A stretch of 64,000 nucleotides of DNA from an uncultured beta proteobacterium (GTDB lineage: Bacteria; Pseudomonadota; Gammaproteobacteria; Burkholderiales; Gallionellaceae). Within the stretch, counting starts at the first letter, position 1. Every line of letters begins with the position of its first letter. The notes beneath the pieces are model-generated. The model was not told where the DNA came from, did not search any database, and worked only from the letters and a program-made list of their open reading frames with translations. Shown in pieces: positions 36,742 through 57,024 of this stretch. The translations under genes and the position numbers were made by a program. The stretch is taken from contig CAVTCF010000006.1 of the NCBI GenBank assembly GCA_963733265.1, positions 57,269 to 121,268 of the forward strand. The letters run 5' to 3'.

Positions 36742-37738
36742 TGTATGACAGTTTTATTGTCACACGTGCCTGTCAGGCTGCTCCTTTTTTGGTCGGGGGC
36801 GGACATGGTGTGGTTGCTGTTGTGGTGGATCGTTGTTCGGATCAAGGCGTGGTTCTCGCATGTATCCCGGCACAAGAGCGGCAATCGGATTCACGGTTTT
36901 AAACCGGTGATTCGGACACAAGCCAAACCGGCTTGGGTGATTCTGGAAATCATCCGCCTCAAAGCCTTGATGCCCGATGCCGGTTGCCGCACGCTCGCCA
37001 ATATCTTCAACCGGCGTTATACCGCCAGCCGCAAGATGAGTGTGGGTAAATCATTCGTGGCGGACACGCTGCGGCAACATCGGTACGAAATCGAAGTCAT
37101 GCGGCGCAAGATCAAACATCGCGTGCCGCAGGCCATGCCGCGCAATCTTGTGTGGGCGATGGACTTGACGGGCAAGGCGGATGCGGCGGGAAACATGCAC
37201 ATGATCTTCGGTCTCATCGATCATGGCAGCCGTGCCTTGCTGAACTTGACGGCATTGCCCGACAAATGCTCGTGGACTTTGCTCGGACACCTGTTTCTTT
37301 CCATCGGGAAATACGGCAAGCCGCGCGCCGTGCGAACGGATAATGAAGCGTGTTTTACCAGCCGGGTATTCCGCGCTGTGCTGATGCTGGCAGGCATACG
37401 CCATCAACGTAGCGAGTTGCACTGTCCTTGGCAGAACGGGCGCATCGAGCGGCTGTTCGGCACGCTTAAACAAAAGCTGGATCAGTGGGAAGTCGCGGGT
37501 TTTGAGGCGTTGAATGGTACGTTGCTCGAATTTCGTTTCTTCTACAATTTTGTGCGTCCGCACCAGAACCTGAATGGCTGGACACCTGCAGAAGCTTGGA
37601 CGGGCGTGAATCCTTTTACTGCAAAGATCAAAAGCGCATATTGGTTCGAGGCGTGGGATGGGTTGTTGCAAGGCTATTATTTGCGGCGCTGAAGCGACGC
37701 GCAGAAAAATTAATGGACGGACAATAAAACTGTCCGGG
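36742..37738 (+). mobile_element. small rve-type IS (IS481-like), boundaries approximate
   Basis: 15-bp inverted repeats: GACAGTTTTATTGTC at 36747-36761 and its reverse complement at 37720-37734. They flank a single DDE ORF. Confidence 0.55.
36745..37692 (+). CDS. DDE (rve/integrase core) transposase
   Basis: WAMDLTG (D), RTDNEACF (D), WQNGRIERLF (E), RPHQNLNGWTP. Confidence 0.8.
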   Translation: MTVLLSHVPVRLLLFWSGADMVWLLLWWIVVRIKAWFSHVSRHKSGNRIHGFKPVIRTQAKPAWVILEIIRLKALMPDAGCRTLANIFNRRYTASRKMSVGKSFVADTLRQHRYEIEVMRRKIKHRVPQAMPRNLVWAMDLTGKADAAGNMHMIFGLIDHGSRALLNLTALPDKCSWTLLGHLFLSIGKYGKPRAVRTDNEACFTSRVFRAVLMLAGIRHQRSELHCPWQNGRIERLFGTLKQKLDQWEVAGFEALNGTLLEFRFFYNFVRPHQNLNGWTPAEAWTGVNPFTAKIKSAYWFEAWDGLLQGYYLRR

Positions 37739-38023: not shown

Positions 38024-38332
38024 TTATAGGAATGTGTAAGAATTTGAAACCTCAATTTTCGACACAAGCCCTGACTTGTTTAGATAAATAAACACAAGGA
38101 CAGATTTATCAAAAGCACAATTCTCTCCCCTGATATTTGACTGGTATCGTTGTTGATATTCGTCGTAACTAAATTCAATTCCACGGCTTTTCAGCACAAG
38201 CTCGGCTTTTTCACGAGAATCGCCGACATGCAGGTCTTTGTGCAGTTCGGCGCTAATCTTTTCTTTGTCCAAATCTGCGCAGCATGAACTAAGTGACACA
38301 ACGGCCAATACCACCCAAAGAAGTTTCATCAT
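38024..38332 (-). CDS. small lipoprotein, candidate immunity protein for the Rhs C-terminal toxin
   Basis: MMKLLWVVLAVVSLSSC carries a lipobox. The start overlaps the Rhs stop by 4 nt and the gene sits directly downstream of the toxin tail. Confidence 0.55.
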   Translation of the reverse strand: MMKLLWVVLAVVSLSSCCADLDKEKISAELHKDLHVGDSREKAELVLKSRGIEFSYDEYQQRYQSNIRGENCAFDKSVLVFIYLNKSGLVSKIEVSNSYTFL

Positions 38333-41300
38333 TGTGGCTTCGAATAAACCGACTGCACTTGATTTGTATTTGGCTTGTTCGGGTAAAGCAAAAATCCGCC
38401 CGCTGCCGAGTCTGCCGCCGAGGAGCTATTCCAACCACCTGATACAGCTCCGCCCAAAGAGCCTGTTGCTCCACTTGTATTGACAAGTGGCGAAGGGCTG
38501 TAATTCAGATTCGGTGATGGCTGTCCCATATCAGCACCCGGTGCAATAACTATCGGCGCCGGACGTGTTCCAGTCAAACTCTGTACAAAACTTGATGCAT
38601 AGGAATTGCTGTTTGGGCCTAAAGGCCAATATGGGATTTGGTTTTGATTGGTGACGTTTGCAAAATTTACAGCATCCTTAACACTAATGCTGAAATCTTG
38701 TTGGATTACACCCACATTTTGCGTCGTATATACGCTACTTGGTGTATCTTTAAAGGTTGCATCATAAGGTCCGCTAACAGCCGTAATCGAGCCAGCACCC
38801 AACCCCCCGCACAGGACGCATCCTGGTTGCGGTCCAGCCCGCGTTGCGTACTGTTGCCCGGTTACTGTGTCGGTAAGTATAACGACCTGATGGCTTAATC
38901 CAGGTGCAATTGTATGTGTGTAGCCAATTGTAATTTGTGTATCTAGTCCACTCGGATCGTTCCCATTTATGGGATTTGATTCGGCATATGCATAGAAGTT
39001 GACCCCAGCCTTAAACTTCATTCTGTCCTCGCTGATAAACCGACCTGTAACCGGATCATAATACCTAGCCCGTAAATAATACAACCCCGTCCCATCATTC
39101 TCCCTTCCAGTGAATTCCATCCTGTTAACCGCCGTTCCCGTCGTAGCCTGAGTCTCCCCAAACGCCCAATACGCCATGCTCGCCTGTGTGCCGCCGTTAA
39201 CATCCGTTTCCGCCTGCACGCTCATCACATGATCATGCTGGAACAGGTAAGGTACAAGAGTCCCGCTCTGGCTCACAAAACCCGCCACCAGTTCGTCAAT
39301 GGTGCTGCCCCTGAAGTATTTCTCAGTCAGCACGCCGCTTTGTTCCACCGATTCCAGATGCTCGCCTTCAAGGAAGTAGTTGGTGGTACCCAGAACTCCG
39401 CCCACTCTGCCGATGCGGTAATCCATCGGGTCGTATTGGTAGGTCTCTGTCATTCCGTTGCTCAACGTAGCCAGACGACCCTTCGCATCCCAAGTGTTGG
39501 CTCTCGATAAGCTGCCGCCCTGGCTGCTGAGCCTGCCTTCGTTGTCAAAGATAAAGCTGGAATCCAGTGTACCGGTGAGACTACCGAGGTGTATTTCTTT
39601 GAGGCGATTGTTATAGGTCGGCGTATAGGCGGTGATGCTGCCGGTTTGGGTGGCCGGATTATAGATATAGTATTTGGTAGTGCTGCCGGCAGCACCTATC
39701 GTGAGTCCGCCGCGTGTGGCGGTGAGCCTGTTGCCGATGTGATCGTAAGTAAATGCCTCATCATTCGCCACTGCGGGCGCACTCACCACCGTCAGGCGAT
39801 ACAGCGCATCCGGCGTATAGCTCGTGGTGCCGGGATTGGGGCCAGTCGCCACTGTCAGGCCAGTGATGTTGCCGACGCGATCCCGCGTATAGCTTTGCCC
39901 CACCACCGGCGTGCCCGTGGCATCAAAGTGGTTCATGGTCTGCAACCAGCCGCCATTATCGTAGGTGTAAAGGCTGAGTGCACCGCTGCTCATCGTTCTC
40001 GATAGCAAGCGTCCGGCATTGTCATATTGGTAGTTGACGGTGAGATAGTCCGGGTTGGACAGTGCCACCAAGGTTCCCGCACCGTCGTAGGTGTAACTGG
40101 TGGTGCTGCCCTGATAGGTTTTTTTGGTTTGAATGCGGCTGGACTTGTCCCAGGTGAAACCGAGACTGTGGGCACGGCTGTCGGTTTTGCTGGTGAGGCG
40201 ATTCAGGTTGTCGTAAACCATCGAATAGCCGATGGTGTTGTTGGCGACGTAATTCAGGTTTCCCTCGGGGTCGTAGGTCATCGCTTCGCTGCTGCCATCC
40301 TTCAAATAGCTGACATTGGTCGGGCGGTTGAGGATATCAAAAGTGGTGTTGGTGATTTCAGTCAGGCGGTTGGTTTTTTGATAAGCGTTTCCGGCTTGGT
40401 CGAGGGCGTACTTGGTAACAAAGCCGGTGAAGTCGATTTCCGTTGCGGGGCGCCCCAAGCCGTCATACGTCCACGCATATTTGCGCCCTTCGGCATCCAC
40501 CTGAGTGAGCGGATGTCCGAGCAAGTCATAGGTGGTTGCCGTCGTGCCATTCAAGGCATCGCGCACCAGTACCGGGCGGTTGAGTTCATCGAACTGGCTG
40601 CTGACCGAGCAGCTGTCCGTATTCTTGGGTTGTAGCGCAGCGCTGGCATTCGCATCAATGGCGCAAATACGGTTGCCATCGGCATCAAATTTAAAGGAGG
40701 AAACATAGCCGTGCGGATCGGTGACGGTCAGAGGCTGGCCTATCGCATCAAAGGTTGTGATGGTTGTTTCCTTGTTGCCGTTAGTGACGCTGACGGGATG
40801 CCCCGCCAAATCGTAAGCGGTGATGACCGTGCGGCCATTGGCATCGGTCACCGAGGTACGGCGGTTCATGCTGTCGTATTGGTATTGGAGGGTATGTTTT
40901 TCCGGGTCGGTGACGCTGACGACATTTCCCGCGTTATCGTAAGAATAAGTGGTGACGCCATTCATGGCATCGGTCTCGGTCAGCACGCGGTCGGCCGCAT
41001 CGAAGGTGCGTGTGACTATTACGCGAATGTCAAACCCAGTAGCCTTCTTGTACTGGTTGGTCACCTGCCAAAGCTGCCCATTGGCATCAAAACTGTTGGT
41101 GGAAAGATTGCCTGCGGGGTCTTGCACCTGAATAGCGCGATCCAGCGCATCCCAGGTGGTCGTGGTGGTGAGATTAATCAGGGTGGCATCGGTCGGGGTG
41201 TTGCGGCGTGGCAGCGTTTCGGTCAGCTTGCGTCCGAGATTGTCATAGGTATAAGTCTTGGTAACAGCCGTGCCATCCCAGCCTGTCACGGTCTGGTTTT

Positions 41301-43017
41301 GCACGTTGAGATGGGCGGCAGTGTCGTAGGTATAGCTCGTGATGCGTGTTTTGGTGGTATCGGTCGGACTCAAATAATCGGTTTGCGATGCCAGTGTTGC
41401 GTCGCTATTCCAGCAGTAACTTTTGAGCAGAACGTTCGATACGCCGGACAGGGTTGAAATGGTGACGGTGTTGGGCTTACCCGCCGCAACACAAGTTCCT
41501 GTGCCGGTATAAAAAGTGGTGGTGAGCACCGTACCGCGCTTGTCTTTGACGGTAGCCACCTGATCGTAAATGCCGTAGGTAGTATCAACGGTCTGGCCCA
41601 GCGCATCCTGCTCGCGCGTGACATTTCCGAAGGTGTCCGAGGCGGTGTTAAACGTTTTATCGCTCTTGTAGCTGTACTGGGTCAGATAACCCAAGCCATC
41701 TGTTTTGCTGTAACGCAAGCCATCCGCCTGATTGAGGAACATCAGGATGGCACCGTCCGGTTCCGTCAATTTGGTCATGCGCCCCGAACTGTCGTATTCA
41801 TAATCGCGAATGCCGCCACGGGGATCGGTCACTTGCGTGCTCTTGCGGTATAAATCGTAGTCCAGCGTTTCGGTATTGTTCAGTGCATCATGATCGTTGA
41901 AAGCGCGACCGTTCTGATAATAGGTAAAGGTGGTCTGAACACCGCGCAGAGGTTTGGCGACAGTAATCAGGTTGTGCGTACCCGTGGTGTAACCGTAGCT
42001 GAGCGTCTGAGTTAAGGGATTCGTATAGGAAACCAGATTGCCATTTCCGCTTGTCCCAGTGACGCTGTATTGCCAGAAGCGTCCCGACCAATCGGCGATT
42101 TGGCTCAGGTGATTGTTGATATCATAAGTAAAGACAAGACCCGTGCGACCGGAGATGCCCAGATTGTCCGCGACGGTGGCAATACGTCCGTTAGCGTTAT
42201 AGGTAAAGTTCAGTTGATTACCCCAAGGGTCGGCAATCTGGATTAACTGTGCAGTGATGCCGGGCGTGGTTTTGAGCGTTCCCGTGGGAGATTGAAATAT
42301 ATATTTGGTGCCGTTTCTGAATGTGAGGGTATGTTGCCCTGCAACTGGCGTATCGAACGCGAGGTTGTCGAATTCGCCTTGTGGAGTTGTGATCGCGTAT
42401 GTGGTTTCGTTGACCAGATAGTTGTGATCTCCACCACGCTCGTCGGTATAGGTAATAGAGCTGGTCTTGCCGTTACCATTTTCCGGTGCCTGTGCCGGAG
42501 TGCAGTTGGGGCAGACACCATAATCGTTGGCTTTGAGACGCATACCGTAGCTGTGTACCCAGCCATTCCCCAAACCCAGATCATTGGCGGTAGCCGATGG
42601 CGCACTGTTATAGGTGCGAGTAAAAGCATAGTTCAATCCTGCGCGCCCCTTGATGACGAAATCGGTTTCGTCATGAAAGTTATTTCCGGTGACGGTAGAC
42701 ACCGGGTCTGTAGTAGACGGTGTTTTAACGATATTGTTATTGGCCTCGGCGATGGTGTTGGCGTTGGTCAGCGTCGCGTTGTTAAAGGTGGGGACGGCTG
42801 AGACAGGTGATGCCACCCCCGGAATCACCACCGAAGTGGATTGCTGAAGCAATGTGCCATTGGGCGGAACGTAGCCACCGGCTAGTGCAAGGCTAGGCAT
42901 GAGCACGATCGCAGATATGGACAATGCTTGCTTGAACTGTTTGAGAAGCTTACGTGTCGGCTGGCGCATGATGGTCACTTTTCGGTTCACTTTGAGAGAG
43001 GTCGGGCTCATGGGCAC
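38329..43017 (-). CDS. Rhs/YD-repeat toxin with Sec signal peptide and divergent C-terminal domain
   Basis: Dozens of YD repeats (..YDxxGN..). The RHS core end reads ..YYLRARYYDPVTGRFISEDRM...NPINGNDPSGL and is followed by a 204-aa tail. An alternative start is MRQPTRK at 42969. Confidence 0.9.
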   Translation of the reverse strand: MPMSPTSLKVNRKVTIMRQPTRKLLKQFKQALSISAIVLMPSLALAGGYVPPNGTLLQQSTSVVIPGVASPVSAVPTFNNATLTNANTIAEANNNIVKTPSTTDPVSTVTGNNFHDETDFVIKGRAGLNYAFTRTYNSAPSATANDLGLGNGWVHSYGMRLKANDYGVCPNCTPAQAPENGNGKTSSITYTDERGGDHNYLVNETTYAITTPQGEFDNLAFDTPVAGQHTLTFRNGTKYIFQSPTGTLKTTPGITAQLIQIADPWGNQLNFTYNANGRIATVADNLGISGRTGLVFTYDINNHLSQIADWSGRFWQYSVTGTSGNGNLVSYTNPLTQTLSYGYTTGTHNLITVAKPLRGVQTTFTYYQNGRAFNDHDALNNTETLDYDLYRKSTQVTDPRGGIRDYEYDSSGRMTKLTEPDGAILMFLNQADGLRYSKTDGLGYLTQYSYKSDKTFNTASDTFGNVTREQDALGQTVDTTYGIYDQVATVKDKRGTVLTTTFYTGTGTCVAAGKPNTVTISTLSGVSNVLLKSYCWNSDATLASQTDYLSPTDTTKTRITSYTYDTAAHLNVQNQTVTGWDGTAVTKTYTYDNLGRKLTETLPRRNTPTDATLINLTTTTTWDALDRAIQVQDPAGNLSTNSFDANGQLWQVTNQYKKATGFDIRVIVTRTFDAADRVLTETDAMNGVTTYSYDNAGNVVSVTDPEKHTLQYQYDSMNRRTSVTDANGRTVITAYDLAGHPVSVTNGNKETTITTFDAIGQPLTVTDPHGYVSSFKFDADGNRICAIDANASAALQPKNTDSCSVSSQFDELNRPVLVRDALNGTTATTYDLLGHPLTQVDAEGRKYAWTYDGLGRPATEIDFTGFVTKYALDQAGNAYQKTNRLTEITNTTFDILNRPTNVSYLKDGSSEAMTYDPEGNLNYVANNTIGYSMVYDNLNRLTSKTDSRAHSLGFTWDKSSRIQTKKTYQGSTTSYTYDGAGTLVALSNPDYLTVNYQYDNAGRLLSRTMSSGALSLYTYDNGGWLQTMNHFDATGTPVVGQSYTRDRVGNITGLTVATGPNPGTTSYTPDALYRLTVVSAPAVANDEAFTYDHIGNRLTATRGGLTIGAAGSTTKYYIYNPATQTGSITAYTPTYNNRLKEIHLGSLTGTLDSSFIFDNEGRLSSQGGSLSRANTWDAKGRLATLSNGMTETYQYDPMDYRIGRVGGVLGTTNYFLEGEHLESVEQSGVLTEKYFRGSTIDELVAGFVSQSGTLVPYLFQHDHVMSVQAETDVNGGTQASMAYWAFGETQATTGTAVNRMEFTGRENDGTGLYYLRARYYDPVTGRFISEDRMKFKAGVNFYAYAESNPINGNDPSGLDTQITIGYTHTIAPGLSHQVVILTDTVTGQQYATRAGPQPGCVLCGGLGAGSITAVSGPYDATFKDTPSSVYTTQNVGVIQQDFSISVKDAVNFANVTNQNQIPYWPLGPNSNSYASSFVQSLTGTRPAPIVIAPGADMGQPSPNLNYSPSPLVNTSGATGSLGGAVSGGWNSSSAADSAAGGFLLYPNKPNTNQVQSVYSKPQ

Positions 43018-46000
43018 GTCGAGCTAAGTGTGCTGTCGTTGAGGGAGAATGTCTGGTCGTTGGTGATGCCGTATGTTTCACCGTTGATGTTGCCCGTGAC
43101 AGCATCGTGGGTCTTTTGAATGGCGACACCGAAGCGGTAATATGAACCTACCGACAGTTGGGAAGGAATCACGTATTCACCCCATACCGAAGCCAGATTT
43201 TGCTGATCAAGGATTTTTCGGATGCACCCGATCTGGGTTGTCAACTGGGCATTATTGGTTGCCGGTAGTGCTCTGAACACAAGGCTCGTGCTCGGTGTGA
43301 AGAAGTTGAAGTAGCTGGCGTTCGCTGCGACGGCGCTGTTCAAACAGCCTTGCAGGTCGCCAAGCAAAACAGTGGCAGTCAGATTGGTGTAGGTAGTGCC
43401 GTTGCAGGTCAAACTGGTATTGTTGTGGATTGTGTAGGTATAGCCAAACCCAATTGATCCCAAAACGATTCTGCCGCCCAGCACCTGTACACCAGTGAGG
43501 CTGTAGGAAAAATAACCGCCGTTAACGTACACATAGATGACCACCGTGTATGTGCCATCGGCTGCAGTGGTTCGCAACAGATCGAAAGACCAAGTAGAAG
43601 TAGTTCCTGAAAAAGACGGGCTACCAACCTGGAATCCTGCAGGCGAGACAATTTGAATGCTACTGGGTATGTAGGGCGACGTATTACCGTTGTAAATATA
43701 ACCGCCGTCTTTATTGCTCAGGATCGAATTGACCGTGATGCTATAACTTCCATCCGCCAGAGCACTCGTTTCATTAACGTAGAAATTGTAGGTAGACGAA
43801 TTGGCGGCTCCAACACGCACAAAGCTCGGCGCTGACAATGCAAAACCCGGCGAACTGGTTAGAGAGGCAGAAATAATATCTGCGGTCGGGAAATTGGCGC
43901 TTGTGGCACCCAAGGCGATATTGCTCAAAGGCGTCGCCGCTACGGTTTGGTTAGTCAGCAATGCGTTGTAATTTGAATTGTAGCCGCTCAGCAAACTGTC
44001 GTAACCATTGGTTGACGAGTATGCCCAAATAGAAGTAAGCGGATCGGTGGCAAGTAACCCCGTCACATCTGGGCGCATTGCGTAAAAACTGCTTGCGCCG
44101 GTACCGGTGTATCCATAAGACAGATAACTTTGACCAAAGATGCTCCACATATTGCGCGTAAAGCTGCTGGGTACGGTGGTGCCGTAACCGAAGCTCGGAT
44201 ACATTGTGACCACTGTATCGGTACTGGAATTCTTGACTGGGTTGACAAGCGTTGCGCCATTGCTAAGCGCAAGCTGTATACCTCGCACCGTTGAAATAGC
44301 GTCATAGCCTGTCAGTTGCTGCCAGGTTTCGTGTTCCAGTGAAGAAGCCATATGGCCTATCAATTCGAACTGCGTATTGGAGTAAGTTGACGGTTGATTG
44401 ATGCGCCAACTACCGGCGATACGAACGCCCTTCATATCGATCAGAAGACCACCGGGTAATACCGCGAAGGCGGTACCATCGATATATTCGACATCGTAGG
44501 TTGAACTGACGACACCCAAAAACCCGGTAATCGGCGTCTTGACTTTATTGATGGCATCCAGCTGAGACATGCCGTCGCGCATCGATGCGTAGTACTGGTA
44601 ACCCGCCACATACAGAAGTCCGCCCGTCATTGCATCTAGTGCCGCGCTATCGTCGAGTAGTCTGGGGTCTGTCGCAGCCCAGACTCCCGTACCATTGATG
44701 TCAACATAGGGTGTGCAATTGAGTCCCGATACAGGATCGCAGGCTTGACCATTTGCGCCGGGATCAGCCGGGTTGAAAACGATTTTGTATTGCTGGTTGG
44801 CTGCCAGCAATTGTTGCGAGGCGCGATGTACCTGACTCCAGTTGGAGGTTTCTCCGCCAGTGGCGATCAGGTAGTAGCCACCAACGATTGCGTTGTAGTT
44901 GGCTGTAATAGTTTGGTCGGTGGTGGTTGCATCCGGAGCCGGTGCGCCATCCATCGTGACTACCAGTGAAAAGGGTGAACCCAATACGATGGTCTGACCG
45001 TTAATAATCAGACTACCCCCTGTCAGGATTATTGCACCCCCAACCTGAGTTCCGCCGAGACGGAAGAGTTCAGACATATTGCTTCCCGTTTGGTTGAAGG
45101 TGAAAGTGAATCGCTGCGTTGCTGCGTCAACCAGACTGACCGTCGCGGTGCCAAGATTTATGCTGGCACCGAATTGAGCCGCGGCTGTTACATATTTCAT
45201 CCACTTTTTGGGTTCAATGGACGGGAAAGCAACATCATGGTCTGCCGCTGAGTTGTAACGGCGCAAGCTGCTCACAGTTGCAAAGGGCAGAGAATCAGGC
45301 AACAAGCCGTCGGATTCAGAAACTATGCCGGTGAAGTCGGGGATGTCTTCCAGCGTTTTACCCGGAGCGCTCGTCTGCAACCATGCCAGAACCTGTTCCT
45401 GATAGATTTCGAGCGGATTCTTGTCGCGCCTAGTGAGGTCGTTATTCGCCAGTGCGCTGTAATACGCAGTGTAATTGAAAGTCTGCGTCGAATATGGATC
45501 AAGTCCAGACACCCTTTGTCCGCGCTGCTTGAAAGAGGGATCAAGTGGCACCCAGTCACACAACGCGGGAGTTGTATTGCAATTGATCGTAGTTGGGCCT
45601 GCTCCGCGATAATTGCCATAAGGGATCAGCGCTTCAACCCACACATGCTCGAAGTCAATGGTCGATTTGTCAGTGGCAAGCACTGCATTCTGAATGCCTT
45701 GATCACGGAGGAGTCCATAAGCGAGATCAGGGTTTTCCACAGCGAGCCAGTTCATCACGTTGGCTGCAGACAGATGCACTGTGCCGACAACATAGCGGGC
45801 GGGTGTTCCCTGTGAGCGCAACATGGCGATCAGGGTTGCCGCAAGGTCGACATCGTTCCCTCTTCCACCAAGGTAGGTATTGATGGCACCGGAACGCGCA
45901 CCGTGATAAAGCGAATAATCGTAGTTGTTACGGACGTATTCAAAAATCGCCACCGGATTCGCCAAAGCATCGGCCTGAACTCTCAGGTCGGAAGCTGCGC

Positions 46001-46154
46001 AGCCGGTATAAGGTGTTGTGCCACCGCTGCAAAACATTATTTCATGCGAACTTAAACTCGTATCGCCTATAACAGTGTCAGTTGACCAAGCTGGTAAGGT
46101 ATAGCCCAGTAGAAAAACCAGACAGAGCGTGCGAATAACGGGGAATGATTTCAC
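43008..46154 (-). CDS. large secreted transglutaminase-like (cysteine-protease fold) protein, catalytic Cys apparently replaced
   Basis: A signal peptide, then ..GGRGNDVDLAATLIAMLRSQGTPARYVVG...FEHVWVEALIP...WVPLDPSF, which is the TGase core pattern with D where the Cys is expected. Confidence 0.7.
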   Translation of the reverse strand: MKSFPVIRTLCLVFLLGYTLPAWSTDTVIGDTSLSSHEIMFCSGGTTPYTGCAASDLRVQADALANPVAIFEYVRNNYDYSLYHGARSGAINTYLGGRGNDVDLAATLIAMLRSQGTPARYVVGTVHLSAANVMNWLAVENPDLAYGLLRDQGIQNAVLATDKSTIDFEHVWVEALIPYGNYRGAGPTTINCNTTPALCDWVPLDPSFKQRGQRVSGLDPYSTQTFNYTAYYSALANNDLTRRDKNPLEIYQEQVLAWLQTSAPGKTLEDIPDFTGIVSESDGLLPDSLPFATVSSLRRYNSAADHDVAFPSIEPKKWMKYVTAAAQFGASINLGTATVSLVDAATQRFTFTFNQTGSNMSELFRLGGTQVGGAIILTGGSLIINGQTIVLGSPFSLVVTMDGAPAPDATTTDQTITANYNAIVGGYYLIATGGETSNWSQVHRASQQLLAANQQYKIVFNPADPGANGQACDPVSGLNCTPYVDINGTGVWAATDPRLLDDSAALDAMTGGLLYVAGYQYYASMRDGMSQLDAINKVKTPITGFLGVVSSTYDVEYIDGTAFAVLPGGLLIDMKGVRIAGSWRINQPSTYSNTQFELIGHMASSLEHETWQQLTGYDAISTVRGIQLALSNGATLVNPVKNSSTDTVVTMYPSFGYGTTVPSSFTRNMWSIFGQSYLSYGYTGTGASSFYAMRPDVTGLLATDPLTSIWAYSSTNGYDSLLSGYNSNYNALLTNQTVAATPLSNIALGATSANFPTADIISASLTSSPGFALSAPSFVRVGAANSSTYNFYVNETSALADGSYSITVNSILSNKDGGYIYNGNTSPYIPSSIQIVSPAGFQVGSPSFSGTTSTWSFDLLRTTAADGTYTVVIYVYVNGGYFSYSLTGVQVLGGRIVLGSIGFGYTYTIHNNTSLTCNGTTYTNLTATVLLGDLQGCLNSAVAANASYFNFFTPSTSLVFRALPATNNAQLTTQIGCIRKILDQQNLASVWGEYVIPSQLSVGSYYRFGVAIQKTHDAVTGNINGETYGITNDQTFSLNDSTLSSTCP

Positions 46155-46175
46155 TTTGAATTCCTCGGTGAGTTA

Positions 46176-47027
46176 TTAACGATGATGAGTAATTGTGGAA
46201 ATTGAAGGCGTGGGCTCTGGTACCTGCTGCCCAGCCTCGCGCAATGCTGTATTGCGTTCGGCCATGACTTCCGTCAACGTTTTTGGACGCAGCCGATCCC
46301 GCAGAGCGTTCAGGCGGGTTGCATCCGCTGAGGTCACGCTGCTGATGTTAATAGCGGAATTCACTTCGTCCTGTAAGGCATTGGATTTTGCAAGAAGCTG
46401 TGCGGTATGCTCGTTGTGAGCATTACCCCGTGTCGGCGTTGTACTCAATGTTGAGTTAGTCCGACGAATCGTATCCAATGTTGCGCGCACGGCATCGAAT
46501 TCTCTGATGCCCGAGGTTTGAGTTCCTGTCTGTGCCGATTCCGATGGCATTGTTGACGCTACGGTCGCAGGTGTTACGACCGAACTAGGTTGCGGCAATA
46601 GTTTGGGGTCAACTCCTTTTCCACCAGTCAAGTGCAGACTGGATTGTTCAATCAGTGACGCAGGCTTGTTTGATCCGGATACATTGAAAGAACGCTTGCC
46701 CACATTTACGCTCGGTGGCGTATTGAAAAGCGTCTTGATGGCATTATCCAACGATGCGCCGAGTGCTTTTACATTCTGATGAACAGTTTGCTGTGTGGGG
46801 TCGGGAATAAAACCCTGACGTGTGCTGAGCACGGCTCGTCCGAGAACACGGATGGATTGAATATCTTCCGAAGAAAGTTTTCCGGCAAGTTGGGGAACTT
46901 TGGGAGTATTCGCCGGTATGTTCGTCTGCGCCATCGCGCCGACAGATATTACACAGGACGATATCAGGACGACCACCTTCAATGCTTTAGTTTTAATCAA
47001 CCCGACAAACAGAATTTTAGAATTCAT
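46176..47027 (-). CDS. secreted low-complexity protein (283 aa)
   Basis: Signal peptide ..VISVGAMAQT, Ser/Thr/Pro-rich. The start overlaps the upstream gene stop by 4 nt. Confidence 0.55.
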   Translation of the reverse strand: MNSKILFVGLIKTKALKVVVLISSCVISVGAMAQTNIPANTPKVPQLAGKLSSEDIQSIRVLGRAVLSTRQGFIPDPTQQTVHQNVKALGASLDNAIKTLFNTPPSVNVGKRSFNVSGSNKPASLIEQSSLHLTGGKGVDPKLLPQPSSVVTPATVASTMPSESAQTGTQTSGIREFDAVRATLDTIRRTNSTLSTTPTRGNAHNEHTAQLLAKSNALQDEVNSAINISSVTSADATRLNALRDRLRPKTLTEVMAERNTALREAGQQVPEPTPSISTITHHR

Positions 47028-48283
47028 GACCGGTATCCTTTATTCTGGTTTGATTTTCTAAACACCATGATTAGCAATAAGCCAGCCAGCATTATTTCGC
47101 CCCACTCAGGTAAGGTCGGCACATCGTTATCCGTGGTAGCCACAACGTAGCCAGGATTACCTGTTTCCACAATAGTCGTGGCCGTCAAACCAGCGACCGG
47201 TGCGAAGGAAGTAATTTTGTTGTTGCTCACATTCAGGTACGTGAGATTCGTCGCGTTTTGCAGGCCGGTGAGATTGGTGATATTGAGGCCCGATGCATTG
47301 AGTATGGTGAGTTGCTGAATTTGACCTAAGGTGATCGCATCCAGTGCTCCATGTCCAAGTGCTGTGTTGATTGCAGTTCGCAAGGCATTGTCGGGAACGC
47401 TGATAAGTACCTTTTGCGAGGCCAAATCTTTTCCGGCACCGGCGGCCACAGCACGCAAGGAAAGACCGGTCGCCAGAATATCCTCGCCCCAGCTACCGTC
47501 AACTGCCTGCTGACTTTGCAAAGCGGCGAGCAAGGTTGCGGCGTAGGTGGAACTTGGATTGCTGCGCAGATTGGCAACGATGGTCAACGCAATCTGTGAC
47601 ACAGGGGAAGTCGTGTTCACCTTAGCATTCAATGCACTGAGTCCATTGATAATGGCGGCGGGCACTGCACTACTAACTGCCTTCAGCGGGATCAACGCAA
47701 TCAAAACTTGTGCTGTCGTAATGGGATCGCTGGTCGTTTCCTGTCCCAGTGCCCATCCGGTATCTGTGCCGGTCAATTGAGAGGAAGTCAGATAAGCGAC
47801 TGCTTGAGAAACATTCGTGGTCACGCCCTGTTGGGTCAGTGCCTGAAGTGTGAGCGCCGTATCCAGCGGCGACCCCTGATATGTTCCAGATAATCCAAAG
47901 CCATTGTTGCCCGGCCCTGGAGTTGAAAGGCTCTGAGCAGTCTGCAAAACTTGAAGATCCGCACTGACAGACTGACTCGCGGCGCCTAACGCCATTACAC
48001 GGCGGGCGGTAAAATCTACGTTCGCGGGTTCATGGTTGGCAAGCCAGGCTAAACCACCGAAATATGCCGCACCTTGTTGATTGAGCGCTCGCAACGCCAT
48101 CACTGCTTCGGATGTTTGGACGTATTTGACTGCATCAGTGGCACCCCAACTGCCGTCGTCAACGTTGCGCTGCAGGGTGAGCCAAGAAGCTCCGCTACTG
48201 CTCGAAGTCGCAAGAGTGGCAAAGGCAGCGGGCACACAGAGTACCCAAGATAAAATCGCCCCCAACAGAAGAAGATGCCGCAT
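47024..48283 (-). CDS. IPTL-CTERM-anchored surface protein: alpha/alpha-toroid (prenyltransferase-like) repeats plus leucine-rich repeats
   Basis: Signal peptide. DDGSWG and VDGSWGE repeat motifs. LRRs ..LTILNASGLNITNLTGLQNATNLTYLNVSNNKIT.. The C-terminus DNDVPTLPEWGEIMLAGLLLIMVFRKSNQ matches the IPTLxxWG-CTERM sorting signal (TM segment plus basic tail). Confidence 0.75.
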   Translation of the reverse strand: MRHLLLLGAILSWVLCVPAAFATLATSSSSGASWLTLQRNVDDGSWGATDAVKYVQTSEAVMALRALNQQGAAYFGGLAWLANHEPANVDFTARRVMALGAASQSVSADLQVLQTAQSLSTPGPGNNGFGLSGTYQGSPLDTALTLQALTQQGVTTNVSQAVAYLTSSQLTGTDTGWALGQETTSDPITTAQVLIALIPLKAVSSAVPAAIINGLSALNAKVNTTSPVSQIALTIVANLRSNPSSTYAATLLAALQSQQAVDGSWGEDILATGLSLRAVAAGAGKDLASQKVLISVPDNALRTAINTALGHGALDAITLGQIQQLTILNASGLNITNLTGLQNATNLTYLNVSNNKITSFAPVAGLTATTIVETGNPGYVVATTDNDVPTLPEWGEIMLAGLLLIMVFRKSNQNKGYRS

Positions 48284-48549
48284 TTCATTTCCCCTAAAAT
48301 ATGTTCCCGAACTTTGTTCAACGTTCTACAGAAAACATTAATACTGGTACGCTGGCCGATGTTGATGACGCGTCAAATAGACACGATAAAGCTTGAATTG
48401 AATTTTTCGCCTTGAGGATTGCGTACCCCCTCCATGTGGGGAACACTCAGGAACTGTTTATAAACAGTCAAAGAGATTGTAGCGAACAGTCATGACAGTT
48501 ATAGCTACTCGAAATCTATTTTTATAGTCCGAACGGACTATTTGAGTTA

Positions 48550-49176
48550 TTAATTTTCCTGCGGTGATTCCTGAGGATTTTTTAGTTGGTAACTTGTCCA
48601 TCTGTCCGCGACTGAAACAACCAGCAAGGCAGATGCTATCGCCAGGACCAATGGGCCGCCAGTTTGCAGAAAATCATTCCAATAGACCAATGTATGTGGT
48701 TCCAGATTAGGGACGTACTCCCGAAAATCCCACATTGCGCCAACAAATGCGAGTGGTGAGTTCGTGGCTACGAGAAACGCTGCCACAGGAACACCAAGGA
48801 GCAAGCGTAGCAAAATGACAAGGTTGGTTTTGGCCTGCCACGACAGCAGAATGGTGAGTAACACAGTGATAGGCTGTAATACGCTGCCCACTAATACATT
48901 TGGCTCAAAGAAGCGACCCGGTTTAGGCTGCAATACGTGAGCGCCGATGATCATGGGACGAATCTGTGCGGCCTTCAACTGAATAACGGTGTTGTTTTTT
49001 TTGTTGACAACATTGATGCCGTCAACTCTGAAACTGTCATCAATCGTTTCGATTTCCCATGCAATAGTCGGCAGGATGGGCGTAACAAGTGAAGCGCCAA
49101 AGATTTCTCCCAGAGAAAGCAGAATGGCCGCAACGACAATGAGCCTGAACGCAAAATTACGTACTTGCGGTTTCAT
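48550..49176 (-). CDS. polytopic membrane protein co-transcribed with the exosortase
   Basis: Several hydrophobic spans. The likely start MKPQVRNF (49176) overlaps the end of the exosortase gene. Confidence 0.55.
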   Translation of the reverse strand: MKPQVRNFAFRLIVVAAILLSLGEIFGASLVTPILPTIAWEIETIDDSFRVDGINVVNKKNNTVIQLKAAQIRPMIIGAHVLQPKPGRFFEPNVLVGSVLQPITVLLTILLSWQAKTNLVILLRLLLGVPVAAFLVATNSPLAFVGAMWDFREYVPNLEPHTLVYWNDFLQTGGPLVLAIASALLVVSVADRWTSYQLKNPQESPQEN

Positions 49177-49732
49177 GTTGTTTTGCGTCACGTTCCGTAT
49201 TCTGGAACCAGTAGAGCGCATACAAACCGACAATCGCAACTAACGCGATGGGGCCTAACGTGCCGTGAATCAATTTGAATAACGATGGATCGGAACGATA
49301 GGTGTAGAACAGAACCACCAGCCTTACCTGATTTAAACAGAACACCATCAGAATCCCGATTCCCAGTCCGGCGAACCTGCGACGCCAAGGCATGACAACC
49401 GCTGAGAATGCTGCCACGAGCATAAACATGATCTCGGTTCCTTCGCATCCCTTCATCACATTTATTCCACCGCCCGGTGCGCGCAGTTGGTTTCCCATTG
49501 CTTTGACACCAACTTCCGGCGTAATCGCCTGGATCAGCGCTGCGGTCGGAACGACCGTCAAGTCACCGATAACGAAATGTTCAAACGATGTACCGCGACA
49601 AGCGTCAAAGCTCATTTGCAAAACAAAGAAGACTGACAAAAAGAGCAATGCTGATCCCCAAATAGGCAGCGGTTTTGGTGGCCTGTCGATACGAGCGATG
49701 AATTGATCGTAAGATTCGTTTTCGAAGCTCAT
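49157..49732 (-). CDS. xrtH: small exosortase (exosortase H-like, IPTLxxWG-CTERM-specific)
   Basis: A polytopic 191-aa protein with the exosortase catalytic pattern: ..MKGCEGTEIM.. (Cys), ..LNQVRLVV.. (Arg), ..LIHGTLGP.. (His). It lies 0.9 kb upstream of an IPTL-CTERM protein gene. Confidence 0.65.
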   Translation of the reverse strand: MSFENESYDQFIARIDRPPKPLPIWGSALLFLSVFFVLQMSFDACRGTSFEHFVIGDLTVVPTAALIQAITPEVGVKAMGNQLRAPGGGINVMKGCEGTEIMFMLVAAFSAVVMPWRRRFAGLGIGILMVFCLNQVRLVVLFYTYRSDPSLFKLIHGTLGPIALVAIVGLYALYWFQNTERDAKQHETAST

Positions 49733-49995: not shown

Positions 49996-51270
49996 TCAAG
50001 TCATAATTGCAGATTCTGAGACATTGGCCAGCAGAGTCGATCCTCTATGTTTGAGTGAATTCAAATAAACGGATTCGTCATACGGAGTCCGGGTTTGCCA
50101 GCAACGATAAAGTATTCGTATCCATTTAAATGCCAGGGCCCGTACTGCTACTCTGTGAGTGCAACCCTTTTTGCGTTGCTGCTGATAATAGATCCCAGCC
50201 CAATATGATCTCTGTATGCTCGCCCCCGCCCACTCAACAAAGGTCTGACGCAGGAAGGTTGGACAGGCGAATCGCCAATGCACCCAGCATTTTTTGCCGC
50301 TACGCTCAACCACCGGAGCAACCCCGGAATAGCGCTGAATTTCTACGGCACTAGCATAGCGTTCTCGATCCTCGCCAAAAGCGACCAGCAGTCTTGGTGC
50401 CAGAATATTTCCTGCGCCTGGCAAGGCAGCGAACAGATCATAATCAGGCAAGCTTTTGGTGACGGTATCTATCTCGGCATCAAAGCGATCAATTGCCTTT
50501 AGGAGGACACGCAACTGCTCGACCAATGCTTGAACGAGTAATTGCTTCGGATGGATGATGGCTTGATCCTCGGTCAGTGATGTTGCCGCACGGATACCCT
50601 GGATACGTTCCTCAACAAGGTATGCCCTGTTTGCATTATGCAGGCGGAAGAAAGATTTCAGTGTTGCATTCCTTGCTCGCTTGACGTGTTTAAGCGTCGG
50701 CCAACGATCCAAGAAGTCACAGAAAATCAGCGTGTCTCTATGTTCGAACCAGTCCAGCACTTGAGGGTAGTATTCCTTGAGCGTACTGGTCATGAGGTTT
50801 GTAATACTGGTCACCCTGTTGACCAAGTAACGGCGCTCTTCGACTAATGAGCCCAATGTCCTCATGGCAACACTTTGTAGTTTGATGGGATGAAGCTTAT
50901 CTGGGTGTCGGAGCAATATATCCAATGCTATTTCAGCATCGGTCGGGTCGTCCTTGGCACCGCTGGGAACAAAGGCTTCACGGTATTTGGCAAGTGTTGA
51001 GGGATGTACAGGAAAGAGCACGATGAAATCATAACGCTGCAACGCAGAAACGATGGGGCCTTTGGCAAGTTCAAGACAAACTGCAATCGGGCCACCGCCA
51101 AATCGATCACGCAATGAGTAAGCCCATTTTGCGATCACTTCCGGTGTGTGATCCATAGTTCCAAACTCTCGCTGATCTGAACCGGCTGCTTGCAAACAAA
51201 AGTCGTGCTTCCTGTCGGCCCAGTCGAGGCCAACAAAGGCGGTGAAAGAAGGGATAGATTGGGAGTTCAT
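49996..51270 (-). CDS. IS110-family transposase (IS1111-like subgroup)
   Basis: MNSQSIPSFTAFVGLDWADRKHDF... (DEDD N-domain) and ..LPGAGNILAPRLLVAFG.. (Transposase_20 region). GGAGG lies before the ATG at 51270; the ORF-track start at 51420 is unlikely. Confidence 0.85.
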   Translation of the reverse strand: MNSQSIPSFTAFVGLDWADRKHDFCLQAAGSDQREFGTMDHTPEVIAKWAYSLRDRFGGGPIAVCLELAKGPIVSALQRYDFIVLFPVHPSTLAKYREAFVPSGAKDDPTDAEIALDILLRHPDKLHPIKLQSVAMRTLGSLVEERRYLVNRVTSITNLMTSTLKEYYPQVLDWFEHRDTLIFCDFLDRWPTLKHVKRARNATLKSFFRLHNANRAYLVEERIQGIRAATSLTEDQAIIHPKQLLVQALVEQLRVLLKAIDRFDAEIDTVTKSLPDYDLFAALPGAGNILAPRLLVAFGEDRERYASAVEIQRYSGVAPVVERSGKKCWVHWRFACPTFLRQTFVEWAGASIQRSYWAGIYYQQQRKKGCTHRVAVRALAFKWIRILYRCWQTRTPYDESVYLNSLKHRGSTLLANVSESAIMT

Positions 51271-51710
51271 AATCGCCTCCATAAGTGGTAAATTACATAA
51301 ATGGACATGCATGCATGAGTTCTGCGAAGCCAATATAGAGAGCCGGTTGGACGGCGAGCCCTGAGTATTCGTTAACGAACCCAAGCGCACCTGCTGATTC
51401 GAAACTAAAGCGGAAAACATCGAATGTTAGCGGCAACTATTCGTAATCTGCAGGTGCATGTCCTGCCTTCACTGGCAGATACCTGTCAGCTGTGAGTAGT
51501 ATCACTGAAAGAGGACGGAGTGACTATATTGCGGCAAGCAATTCGTAGTGCTCAACGGCAGAAATGGGTTAGATGGAGTCATCCGGCCCACCCGATTTAC
51601 ACCCGTTTCTACGGCCGTTGTACCTCAGTTAAGCGACAGTCGATTACCCCATTTTCGTGCCTGACTTTTGCCCTCAAACTCCTGCGTGCTGAATTATCTA
51701 CGCACGGAGT

Positions 51711-52346
51711 TCATATTCGATAGACCAACTCAGCTATCGGTAAACGATCCCCAGTGATCTCTAACTTATCCGAATGTTCTATCAGCCGAACAAGATACCA
51801 TTTTTTTGGTTCCTGCGTTTCCCAGCACACTCTGATTTTGAAATACGCATCGATTTTAAGCGAAGTTATTATTTCATGATCTCTAAAACGGGCATCCTCG
51901 ACCGACAAGCGGCTAATCACTTCCAGAATTGCCTGCGGTTGAATTGACGGAACGAAAATCAATAAATACCTCGTCTTGAAATTGGCATACCACTGAACCC
52001 GATATTCCTGATCACCGTACATAACCGTCAGCGATTTTTTTATGAAGGACTGGCGCGTTTTTTTCGGATGCCATTTTTGTGTGCACATTTGCTTTGATGA
52101 CTTTTTCCATGCTTCAATTTCAGCCTGTTCCTCTGCATACGCCTGCATTAATTTTGCTATTCCTCTGGGGATATTTTGAGGTTCAAAGTACTTCCAGTAT
52201 GAAAGCCGGTAGAGCACATTCATCTGATGAATAAAATTGAATTGCCGTTTCCGTATCATCCTGGCTAAGGCAAGGAATGGTGCTATGTATCCCATCCACC
52301 AACGATTAATAAAAAACCTGATTTTTTGAATGAACTGTTTATTCAT
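51711..52346 (-). CDS. hypothetical protein (211 aa)
   Basis: Long ORF in AT-rich DNA with no recognisable motif. Confidence 0.5.
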   Translation of the reverse strand: MNKQFIQKIRFFINRWWMGYIAPFLALARMIRKRQFNFIHQMNVLYRLSYWKYFEPQNIPRGIAKLMQAYAEEQAEIEAWKKSSKQMCTQKWHPKKTRQSFIKKSLTVMYGDQEYRVQWYANFKTRYLLIFVPSIQPQAILEVISRLSVEDARFRDHEIITSLKIDAYFKIRVCWETQEPKKWYLVRLIEHSDKLEITGDRLPIAELVYRI

Positions 52347-52436
52347 GTGGTTCCTCGTCTATAATATTTGTACAGTTTCGAATCGAAGCTGATTCGAACA
52401 ATAAATTTTGCAACTCACCCATAAAGCAACCTCAAC

Positions 52437-52724
52437 ATGACCCGTGCCGAACTTGTCGAAAAACTGTGCTTCAAATTTCCAGCATTGCAACTAAAAGACA
52501 TTGATGTGGCGGTGCGCACGATTCTTGATGGCATTACAAATACGCTGGCTCAAGGGGGCAGGGTAGAGGTGCGTGGATTCGGCAGTTTTGCGCTGAATTA
52601 CAAACCGGCACGCAAAGGACGCAACCCAAAAACAGGTATTACGGTGATGGTGCCCGCCAAATACAGCCCTCACTTCAAAGCTGGATTGGAACTGCACGAA
52701 CGTGTCGACTACCAAAAATCCTGA
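52437..52724 (+). CDS. ihfB: integration host factor beta-subunit-like protein (accessory copy)
   Basis: MTRAELVEKL...TLAQGGRVEVRGFGSFALNYKPARKGRNPKTGITVMVPAKYSPHFKAGLELHERV is very close to the IhfB pattern ..[32 protein letters not shown]...KYVPHFKPGKELR.. Confidence 0.8.
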   Translation: MTRAELVEKLCFKFPALQLKDIDVAVRTILDGITNTLAQGGRVEVRGFGSFALNYKPARKGRNPKTGITVMVPAKYSPHFKAGLELHERVDYQKS

Positions 52725-52728
52725 TTTG

Positions 52729-53331: not shown

Positions 53332-53346
53332 AATGATTCTCCGTAA

Positions 53347-54095: not shown

Positions 54096-54127
54096 GTGTA
54101 GATTCCTTTTCTGATTTTGATTTTCAG

Positions 54128-54883: not shown

Positions 54884-54894
54884 CTTGTCTCTCC

Positions 54895-55878: not shown

Positions 55879-56157
55879 CGATAAAATAATTCTCCACGTC
55901 TCTCTTCAGCGGCGGCCAATAGCATTAGCCCCAACGTTTAATCCCCAAATAGGTCCGCATCGCCTTTCGCGCGACACTCAAAAACGCTCGTCAATTGTCA
56001 CCATTTACGCGCTCAAAAGGAATTAATTATTTTGAGCATGCGAACAATATTCAGTCGGATACATTAAATTCTATTTACGACTTCGCGCACCAAAAATAAT
56101 GCTTTGGTAAATCGGAGTTGTGCGTATATTTGGATACCTAAACCGAAAGGAGATGGT

Positions 56158-57017: not shown

Positions 57018-57024
57018 CAATCAG

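Follow-up and report, generated by a model that had tools for sequence, protein, structure and literature searches.

A predicted exosortase encoded with a pseudo-transglutaminase and a Sec-dependent Rhs toxin: candidate machinery for mounting a polymorphic toxin on the envelope

Polymorphic toxins that carry an inactive transglutaminase (TGase) domain between the signal peptide and the RHS repeats have been on record since the survey of Zhang, de Souza, Anantharaman, Iyer and Aravind (2012, Biol Direct 7:18; PMC3482391). These toxins were filed there under export by Sec and type II secretion (T2SS), and their inactive TGase domains were predicted to anchor the toxin at the surface by binding peptides; exosortases, PEP-CTERM-type signals and a toroid partner do not occur in that paper. 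Here, we describe a locus in which a TGase-like gene and an Rhs toxin gene share a strand with a small predicted exosortase, its membrane partner and a toroid-leucine-rich repeat (LRR) protein with a sorting tail, which we call the cargo. The locus occupies positions 38024–49732 of a 64,000-nucleotide stretch of DNA (positions 57,269–121,268 of contig CAVTCF010000006.1, assembly GCA_963733265.1) from an uncultured beta proteobacterium of the Gallionellaceae; this whole stretch is referred to as the window. The pairing of exosortase and Rhs toxin hints that a competition toxin may be mounted or delivered by a route not yet described.

WapA of Bacillus subtilis is a Sec-exported, envelope-retained YD-repeat toxin with a downstream immunity gene. 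For the Sec-only Rhs toxins of Gram-negative bacteria, treated as ‘T2SS/default’ since 2012, we know of no accessory machinery, and exosortases, which are widespread, have to our knowledge almost no assigned roles beyond a link to exopolysaccharide or floc formation. In Myxococcus, the sorting tag of TraA (MYXO-CTERM) is cut by a dedicated membrane protease, and this surface receptor is needed for the transfer of SitA polymorphic toxins (PMC11980579; PMC8546572); an internal sorting motif is also on record for the TraA/myxosortase system (PMC11980579). In our full-text literature searches, no paper was found that joins polymorphic or Rhs toxins to an exosortase, and XrtH, XrtM and ‘midcut’ gave no results. 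No published function of XrtH or XrtM systems was found, for XrtH in line with a first-pass annotation of the window, made from the sequence alone, which had called XrtH function essentially unknown. The same annotation had suggested an undescribed surface route for the Rhs toxin. This is upheld to the extent that no exosortase–Rhs paper was found, but inactive TGase–Rhs toxins with predicted anchoring have been known since 2012 (PMC3482391).

Layout and conservation of the module

The module contains seven open reading frames (ORFs) on the minus strand, all of them lying where the first-pass annotation had placed them. Together with the mobile-element genes at its borders, its features are:

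49157–49732, minus strand: small exosortase, 191 amino acids (aa), TIGR04178 and PF09721 above cutoff
48550–49176, minus strand: membrane partner, 208 aa from the ATG at 49176, without Pfam or NCBIfam match
48284–48549, minus strand: spacer between partner and cargo genes, 266 nt, intergenic
47024–48283, minus strand: toroid-LRR cargo, 419 aa, LRR_4 and IPTL_CTERM
46176–47027, minus strand: p283, 283 aa, secreted low-complexity/helical accessory protein of no family
43008–46154, minus strand: pseudo-TGase protein, 1048 aa, Transglut_core at 49.6 bits
38329–43017, minus strand: Rhs toxin, 1562 aa, DUF6531, RHS_repeat/YD repeats and Rhs_assc_core
38024–38332, minus strand: lipoprotein, 102 aa, lipobox LSSC, putative immunity protein by position
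36745–37692, plus strand: rve-type (IS3-like) integrase gene at one module border, PF13683 and PF00665
49996–51420, minus strand: IS110-family transposase gene at the other module border, PF01548 and PF02371, NF033542 at 136 bits (cutoff 140)

The exosortase and partner genes overlap by 20 nt when the partner starts at the ATG at 49176, and an identical overlap is found at L001 and L004 (L numbers are our handles for related loci); the partner ORF reaches a TTG at 49239, the ATG being the likelier start. Further overlaps are present between the cargo and p283 genes (4 nt), the TGase and Rhs genes (10 nt, with a GTG start) and the Rhs and lipoprotein genes (4 nt), whereas the p283 and TGase genes are separated by a 21-nt spacer, so the earlier statement that the last five genes overlap by 4–10 nt is correct for three junctions but not for this one. 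The Rhs start that best fits the signal peptide is at 42969, which would place a 38-nt spacer behind the TGase gene. The 266-nt gap between the membrane partner and the cargo gene is present as previously noted, and a consensus scan found no minus-strand promoter or terminator in it, a result that is uninformative as fewer sites were found than expected from shuffled sequence. Rfam and tRNA scans of the window were empty. The exosortase, cargo, TGase, Rhs and accompanying genes are read as one mobile module. A simple composite transposon is unlikely because the flanking transposases are of different families (rve versus IS110); terminal repeats were not searched.

Conservation of the gene neighborhood was surveyed from the exosortase side by scanning one genome per species with a pattern search combined with tblastn. 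This gave 73 loci, all from Beta- or Gammaproteobacteria, in which neighbors were counted by tblastn with the window proteins and representative relatives as queries. The partner gene lies directly downstream of the exosortase in 61 of the 73 loci, and in 51 a nearby ORF ends in a D[VI]P(T)LPxW[GA]-transmembrane (TM)-basic tail. A toroid cargo is found near the exosortase in 21 loci, a TGase-like gene in 17 and an Rhs gene within 10 kb in 21, an adjacency that by all appearances is far beyond chance. TGase and/or Rhs genes lie within 10 kb in 19 of the 21 toroid-cargo loci. In the remaining two, the contig ends 1.2 kb past the exosortase (L055), or a different cargo, of 1036 aa, is matched by its tail alone (L022). 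The linkage of exosortase and TGase/Rhs genes spans at least 10 genera and two proteobacterial classes, and the order exosortase–partner–cargo–(p283)–TGase–Rhs is observed in Thiobacillus denitrificans DSM 12475 (in which two of three exosortase copies are Rhs-linked), Denitromonas iodatirespirans, Aquabacterium commune, Thauera sinica, Methylocaldum sp., and in metagenome-assembled genomes (MAGs) of Dechloromonas and Steroidobacteraceae; Rhodocyclaceae MAGs are also among the carriers. In a search from the TGase side, the closer metagenomic relatives with enough sequence all have a toroid gene upstream and an Rhs gene downstream, except L091. With synteny in 21 of 73 loci for Rhs and at least 10 genera, the proposed connection of the sorting system with the TGase/Rhs genes proved not to be accidental.

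The linkage also takes forms other than adjacency. TGase and Rhs form a single polypeptide of ∼2500 residues at seven loci (L004, L007, L013, L026, L031, L033 and L062), and they are also fused at L084, where the TGase C-terminus joins Rhs at approximately residue 70 and the Rhs signal peptide is deleted. In Methylomonas methanica MC09, the genes are arranged as cargo–p230–TGase–Rhs–two small TM ORFs–exosortase–partner, and the exosortase, which shares only ∼29% identity with that of the window, is a genuine XrtM (257 bits, cutoff 125). The toroid-LRR cargo of this module ends in VPAVPIPG-TM-R, as opposed to PTLPEWG in the window, so the sorting signal changes along with the type of sortase in an otherwise conserved module.

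At L043, L025 and L065, toroid and TGase genes are both missing, and the exosortase–partner pair adjoins an Rhs gene with an internal sorting signal. This signal is located ∼490 residues from the C-terminus (...GDVPTLPEWG-MILLGALLLGIGY-RKQ...) and is followed by a second signal-peptide-like helix (PAALA|NE), further YD repeats, the core and the toxin. IPTL_CTERM matches within the Rhs proteins score 28.5 (L043) and 27.2 (L025) against a cutoff of 20.5, and the L065 motif was found by pattern scan only; NF033207 (‘midcut-by-XrtH’) is sub-threshold on the internal-signal region (19.7 and 23.8, cutoff 45). In some relatives, the Rhs protein itself thus carries the sorting signal, and the link is direct.

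The anchor of the toroid protein is also exchanged. Two proteobacterial cargo homologs (P0269 and P0281) end in a dockerin repeat (PF00404) and not in an IPTL tail. On low-GC (34–35%) gut and digester contigs (L125:5734–13096, L145:4627–13708, L120:4529–12988), a toroid+VWA(+A2M-like) protein is encoded directly upstream of a pseudo-TGase protein, with three SLH domains (L145) or a PxTG-like motif, TM segment and KK tail (L125) as the anchor. The pseudo-TGase proteins of these contigs comprise 1200–1500 residues with a Cys-to-Asp core and are followed by immunity-like ORFs and repeated orphan cassettes; RHS repeats were not detected in the two that were scanned (L125 and L145). The SLH, PxTG-like and dockerin alternatives identify the toroid protein as an anchored partner under several anchoring chemistries. 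Taken together, fusions, co-variation, putative direct substrates and anchor swapping argue that an accidental neighborhood is very unlikely.

Several observations concern the mobility of these loci. At L084 (4593–12395), the exosortase, cargo and Rhs proteins are 91, 88 and 91% identical to those of the window, the fused TGase part is only 52% identical, and the partner–cargo spacer is ∼990 nt versus 266 nt; this mosaic suggests recombination inside the module. Single genomes contain two to four paralogous exosortase–partner loci with differing cargo (L007–L009/L029; L013/L022/L027; L047/L054; L059/L076), an uncommon situation among exosortases that would fit cassette-like spread. Directly upstream of loci of this clade, integrase or insertion sequence (IS) genes are often found (L013, L026, L047, L081).

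Predicted properties of the module proteins

The 191-aa protein scores as an exosortase, as the first-pass annotation had proposed: it passes the signature TIGR04178 with 46 bits (cutoff 23) and PF09721 (Exosortase_EpsH) with 30.1 (cutoff 25.7), and C96, R137 and H156 are unvarying in an alignment of 17 diverse homologs of 37–77% identity. It has ∼100 homologs, mostly of 188 aa, whereas a look-up of its exact sequence gave no record. Judged by these scores and the retained catalytic-type Cys/Arg/His set, it is a true exosortase with predicted catalytic activity. The more specific label of exosortase H did not hold, as the TIGR04177 (XrtH) score is 44.2 bits against a cutoff of 86, and all clade members tested score 44–59 bits with this model. 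XrtM is the best-scoring subfamily, but at 65.2 bits the enzyme is also below the TIGR04300 cutoff of 125. Since it fails XrtH and matches XrtM best but below cutoff, we assign it to an apparently unclassified XrtM/XrtH-like clade. The adjoining membrane protein, for which no Pfam or NCBIfam match was found, has ∼4 TM segments, can be aligned with the partner of the Methylomonas XrtM and is a dedicated partner of the exosortase. The possibility that it is a diverged exosortase half was rejected (hhalign probability of 0.3%, no relative in the PDB).

The 419-aa cargo agrees with its earlier description as an LRR/alpha-toroid protein ending in VPTLPEWG-TM-basic. It begins with a signal peptide (AFA|T, assigned by eye), and in the AlphaFold2 (AF2) model, with a pLDDT (predicted local distance difference test) score of 85.7, a single alpha/alpha-toroid (residues ∼30–290) is followed by a short internalin-like LRR region (∼295–380) and a terminal TM helix. 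For the toroid, Foldseek returned single-domain squalene-hopene/type II terpene cyclases together with TED domains from C4 (C4dg), C3 (C3d) and A2M, with E-values of 6e-6 to 1e-3 for squalene-hopene cyclase, C4dg and C3d; for the LRR region, it returned internalins. Relatives of the cargo match Pfam SQHop_cyclase, Prenyltrans and TED_complement. Thioester or class II terpene cyclase chemistry was rejected upon sequence inspection; with neither the DxDD nor the CGEQ motif present, the toroid is read as a non-catalytic binding scaffold.

The C-terminus of the cargo consists of DVPTLPEWG, a TM segment and FRKSNQNKGYRS (in full, DVPTLPEWG-EIMLAGLLLIMVF-RKSNQNKGYRS), and thus has the tripartite layout in which a motif, a TM helix and a basic cluster follow one another up to the very end of the protein; the AF2 terminal helix covers residues 391–413. 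The IPTL_CTERM model (TIGR04174) matches residues 388–409 with 21.2, a marginal pass of the cutoff of 20.5. The tail is kept in 27 of 29 aligned cargo homologs, and the cargo is the only ORF in the window that has one. Co-occurrence (51 of 73 loci) and the co-variation of tail and sortase support the inferred cleavage of the cargo by its cognate exosortase. Other cargo proteins with the same tail (L042:4014–9900; L023:11163–13364; L059:11149–13761) include subtilisin-like proteases with DUF11 repeats, with subtilase cargo found at L023 and L059; the L023 cargo scores 24.1 with IPTL_CTERM (cutoff 20.5). Another same-tail cargo is a 1174-aa protein that by eye is endonuclease/exonuclease/phosphatase-like.

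The p283 protein has a signal peptide (AMA|Q, by eye) and no family match in Pfam or NCBIfam. Homologs are encoded between the cargo and TGase genes at L027, L034, L042, L047, L081, L096 and L098, and p283 is a conserved member of modules with split TGase and Rhs genes (type A) and of XrtM-type modules. It was also considered as an unfused counterpart of the extra ∼250-aa N-terminal region of the TGase::Rhs fusions, but the correspondence is positional only (BLAST E-value of at least 0.3). Near the C-terminus, the p283 family (the window protein and those of L027, L034, L042, L047 and L081) has the motif (G)TPTLQAMP (TPSISTITHHR in the window, TPTLTTLIQHR at L044), which resembles the PTL core of the sorting signal; no TM segment follows, and the motif does not co-vary with exosortase type.

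The 1048-aa TGase-like protein was named for its fold, and the Transglut_core match (49.6 bits) agrees with this, but the catalytic Cys is replaced. In a profile alignment, the Cys of PDB 3isr (GVCRDFA) is opposite an Asp in the window protein (GNDVDLA) and its type A relatives, and Ala occupies the position in the fused relatives (GGATDQA); the triad His (HVWVEA) and Asp (PLDPS) are retained. An active transglutaminase or protease was rejected on account of the missing Cys nucleophile, and with its loss the protein is predicted to be a pseudo-enzyme that serves as a binding module. Its signal peptide is AWS|T (by eye), and the AF2 model (pLDDT of 81) comprises the TGase core followed by several beta-sandwich domains. 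No whole-protein fold match was accepted, as Foldseek gave only weak matches to animal TGases (E-value of ∼3e-3, template-modeling score of ∼0.1), and a PDB sequence search with the TGase protein alone returned nothing.

The Rhs protein is composed of a signal peptide, DUF6531, YD repeats, a core that extends to residue ∼1358 and a C-terminal domain of 204 residues. RHS_repeat scores 183 bits, YD_repeat_2x 150 bits and Rhs_assc_core 77 bits (residues 1283–1358), and the core terminates in NDPSGL (1353–1358). The classical signal peptide reported earlier is seen by inspection (ALA|G) and fits best with the start at 42969. PDB sequence matches are the cocoons 8qja and 8h8a (T6SS Rhs proteins included; T6SS, type VI secretion system), Tse5 and TcB/TcC. 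No PAAR, VgrG, DUF1795 or T6SS domains were found in the Rhs protein or the other scanned ORFs of the window. SpvB, TcdB and TcA gave no matches in the window, and alignment to TcB/TcC structures is confined to the C-terminal core region. The earlier remark that PAAR, VgrG, T6SS and Tc genes are missing from the window is thereby borne out among the ORFs of at least 150 aa that were scanned. Assignment to the T6SS Rhs effectors was rejected, as there is no PAAR, VgrG or Eag linkage and there are no T6SS genes in the window, as was assignment to TcB/TcC of Tc toxins, given the missing SpvB/TcdB mid-N domains and the lack of TcA in the window.

For the 204-residue C-terminal domain, no Pfam match was found. 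Behind the conserved DPxG[LMQ], the C-termini of the family comprise AHH (L004), Endonuclea_NS_2 (L031), Tox-REase-7 (L062), EndoU (L007) and several unassigned domains, including that of the window, and the L084 Rhs protein is 91% identical to the window protein up to residue ∼1290 and divergent beyond. By this pattern, the members of the window Rhs family appear to be real polymorphic toxins. The Rhs tails of the window (38329–38400), L081 (17226–17273) and L084 (near 12350) have a common extreme end, ...GGF(L/I)(L/I)YPNK(P/S)NTNQ(V/I)Q(S/R)VY(S/K)K, which comes after Gly/Ser/Ala-rich stretches, and the toxin domains differ upstream of it. At L081 and L084, small multi-TM proteins and no lipoprotein are encoded downstream of Rhs. 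The common tail and these multi-TM ORFs may indicate a membrane-active toxin family. In the window, the lipoprotein gene overlaps the Rhs stop codon by 4 nt; its product has no family match, no conserved pairing with Rhs emerged, and it is, from its position alone, a putative immunity protein.

The rest of the window looks like a mosaic conflict island with a GC content of 0.43–0.60. Immediately upstream of the module, on the opposite strand, is a type III Druantia pair (26592–36445, plus strand; PADLOC) of DruH3 (1177 aa, 427 bits) and DruE3 (2096 aa, 2362 bits). A type I restriction-modification set lies within 15795–25716 (plus strand) and comprises hsdR (15795–19244), hsdM (20904–22415) and hsdS (22412–23587), with an RmuC-family gene (19264–20907; PADLOC RTasRmuC, 368 bits) between hsdR and hsdM. 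Behind hsdS are a gene for an NsnB/AriA/OLD-like ABC ATPase (23599–25716) and an unassigned 291-aa ORF, and a sigma-54 activator is encoded at 14217–15719. Mobile-element genes are unusually dense (4263–5288, 9025–10410, 10802–11764, 36745–37692, 49996–51420 and 62048–63604) and comprise an integrase, a DDE transposase, two IS110-family transposases, an rve integrase and a Mu-like transposase. Two ORF runs, 51711–55380 (minus strand; 211, 200, 167, 277 and 161 aa) and 56104–60005 (plus strand; 203 and 318 aa), gave no Pfam match for these products; also encoded there is a 702-aa protein whose C-terminal domain is of the LPP20 lipoprotein type.

Possible mechanism and alternative explanations

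On balance, we consider it probable that the module serves to attach a Sec-exported Rhs toxin complex to the envelope by way of its exosortase. Sec signal peptides are visible by eye on four proteins (cargo, p283, pseudo-TGase and Rhs), which would therefore all reach the periplasm. There, the exosortase and its four-TM partner would recognize the DVPTLPEWG-TM-basic tail of the toroid-LRR protein, as suggested by family knowledge and co-variation. By analogy with sortase, ArtA and rhombosortase (PMC11980579), the enzyme may cut after or within PTLPEWG, so that the TM anchor would be removed and the cargo left on an envelope acceptor. The dead TGase-like protein could act as a binding adaptor that docks the Rhs cocoon on the anchored toroid-LRR protein, a proposal that builds on what Zhang et al. 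(2012; PMC3482391) predicted, and p283 may be a further accessory subunit. The Rhs cocoon would thereby be displayed or staged for delivery. As in other members of the family, the C-terminal toxin would be enclosed in the cocoon and freed after autoproteolysis at the DPxGL motif, and the downstream lipoprotein, to judge by its position, would protect the producer. Systems of the L043/L025/L065 type would skip the adaptor layer, with the exosortase anchoring the N-terminal part of the shell directly.

Several points weigh against this reading. A cocoon of ∼170 kDa would have to cross the outer membrane, and binding between the TGase-like protein and the toroid is pure inference. The window exosortase is below both curated subfamily cutoffs (XrtH and XrtM), and the IPTL_CTERM score of its cargo is barely above cutoff (21.2 versus 20.5). 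The nearest long-contig homologs, L001–L003 (78% identity), are exosortase–partner pairs without cargo, TGase or Rhs genes nearby, and L091 has p283 and TGase genes without a toroid gene upstream. Approximately 70% of the loci of the clade serve other cargo (subtilases and large proteins of 700–1900 aa), so the sortase is not dedicated to Rhs. Lastly, where relatives share a related C-terminal tail, the genes downstream encode small TM proteins and no lipoprotein.

It is also conceivable, although we think it rather unlikely, that the link is real but its role is in maturation or retention. The toroid-LRR protein would then stay behind in the periplasm or on the inner membrane and serve the TGase/Rhs complex as a chaperone for assembly or as a safety catch, and the exosortase cut would be a step of release or activation, e.g. 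for T2SS or vesicles. This would suit the periplasmic location that signal peptides predict for all components and the periplasm-facing position of the putative immunity lipoprotein, as well as the midcut Rhs proteins, in which exosortase and signal-peptidase cuts would yield two periplasmic shell pieces. However, the SLH, PxTG-like and dockerin modules on toroid partners elsewhere speak for extracellular anchoring, and exosortase, archaeosortase and rhombosortase substrates are generally viewed as surface-anchored (PMC11980579).

The matches of the LRR region to internalins, the resemblance of the toroid to complement and A2M TED domains, and a window Rhs C-terminal domain without a recognizable antibacterial fold would be compatible with a module directed against eukaryotes (grazers or hosts) or working chiefly as an adhesin system, in which the LRR/toroid protein binds a eukaryotic or abiotic surface and the Rhs protein is an anti-eukaryotic toxin of the Tc/teneurin type. 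This explanation is disfavored, and we regard it as improbable: AHH, EndoU, REase and NS-nuclease C-termini, together with immunity-like ORFs and orphan cassettes, form an interbacterial signature, TcA and SpvB parts are missing, and the carriers are free-living environmental Beta- and Gammaproteobacteria. Strongly disfavored, and in our estimate hardly credible, is a functional independence of the neighbors, i.e. a generic exosortase/cargo pair and an unrelated Sec-dependent TGase/Rhs toxin that share mobile islands, since the IS-rich defense island, the two flanking transposase genes and an exosortase clade that serves unrelated cargo and at times stands alone are outweighed by a gene order kept over at least 10 genera and two proteobacterial classes, the persistence of the module with an XrtM lineage and a different tail, the almost one-to-one co-occurrence of toroid cargo and TGase/Rhs, and the sorting signal within some Rhs proteins.

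A wider proposal can also be made, which we put forward tentatively and do not yet consider probable. Small XrtM/XrtH-like exosortases may represent an unrecognized trafficking class for polymorphic toxins of diderms, in which Rhs proteins are tethered either by a toroid-LRR dock and a dead-TGase adaptor or by a mid-protein cut, and which would allow contact-dependent killing without type V, VI or VII secretion systems (T5SS, T6SS, T7SS). The toroid and pseudo-TGase pair would then be an ancient docking device shared with monoderms, in which SLH, sortase-like or dockerin anchors take over from the exosortase tail.

Comparison with known systems

An exosortase module of this kind offers a concrete and testable function, the mounting of a competition toxin, and the missing accessory machinery of Sec-only Rhs toxins may be sought in its toroid-LRR cargo, p283, exosortase and partner. 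The mid-protein sorting signal in Rhs provides a predicted enzyme–substrate pair that is open to a simple cleavage assay. Culturable carriers are Methylomonas methanica MC09, Thiobacillus denitrificans DSM 12475, Aquabacterium commune DSM 11901, Denitromonas iodatirespirans IR-12 and Thauera sinica.

Among sortase systems, XrtH/IPTL-CTERM (TIGR04177/TIGR04174) resembles the window pair in the size of the enzyme (<200 aa in the window) and in the cargo tail of IPTLxxWG, TM segment and basic residues, which is above the IPTL_CTERM cutoff, but the enzymes of the window clade reach only 44–59 bits of the required 86. The internal signals in Rhs proteins recall the notion behind NF033207 (‘midcut-by-XrtH’), although they match this model only below threshold. 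For XrtM (TIGR04300), the common ground is the Methylomonas methanica module, in which toroid-LRR, p230, TGase and Rhs are combined with a true XrtM and a homologous partner; however, the window enzyme scores 65 bits versus 125, and its cargo signal is IPTL-like, whereas that of M. methanica is VPAVPIPG.

The closest working analogy is TraA/SitA, in which a sorting-tag-anchored surface protein serves the transfer of polymorphic toxins. It differs from the window in its protease (a CPBP glutamate protease instead of an exosortase), its toxins (lipoproteins instead of Rhs cocoons) and the position of the toxin genes outside the sortase operon. With WapA, the PAAR-Rhs proteins of T6SS and TcB–TcC, the window toxin has in common the YD cocoon, the Rhs core with an aspartyl autoprotease motif, the variable C-terminal toxin and the downstream immunity gene, which in the window is putative. 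T6SS PAAR-Rhs and TcB–TcC systems are set apart by PAAR, VgrG, Eag chaperone, TcA and SpvB, none of which is present in the window. In comparison with WapA, the diderm host adds an outer-membrane step, and a predicted exosortase substrate takes the place of a wall-binding domain as the anchor.

The inactive-TGase/RHS toxins of Zhang et al. have an architecture that is identical to that of the fused relatives (L004, L013, L026, L031, L033, L062 and L084). They are single polypeptides, whereas in the window TGase and Rhs are encoded separately, by neighboring genes whose products have one signal peptide each, and the window module additionally contains the toroid-LRR cargo, p283, the exosortase and its partner. 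In summary, the toxin class and the sortase class are each known, and it is their coupling, the accessory set of partner, toroid-LRR protein and p283, and the mid-protein signal in Rhs that are new.

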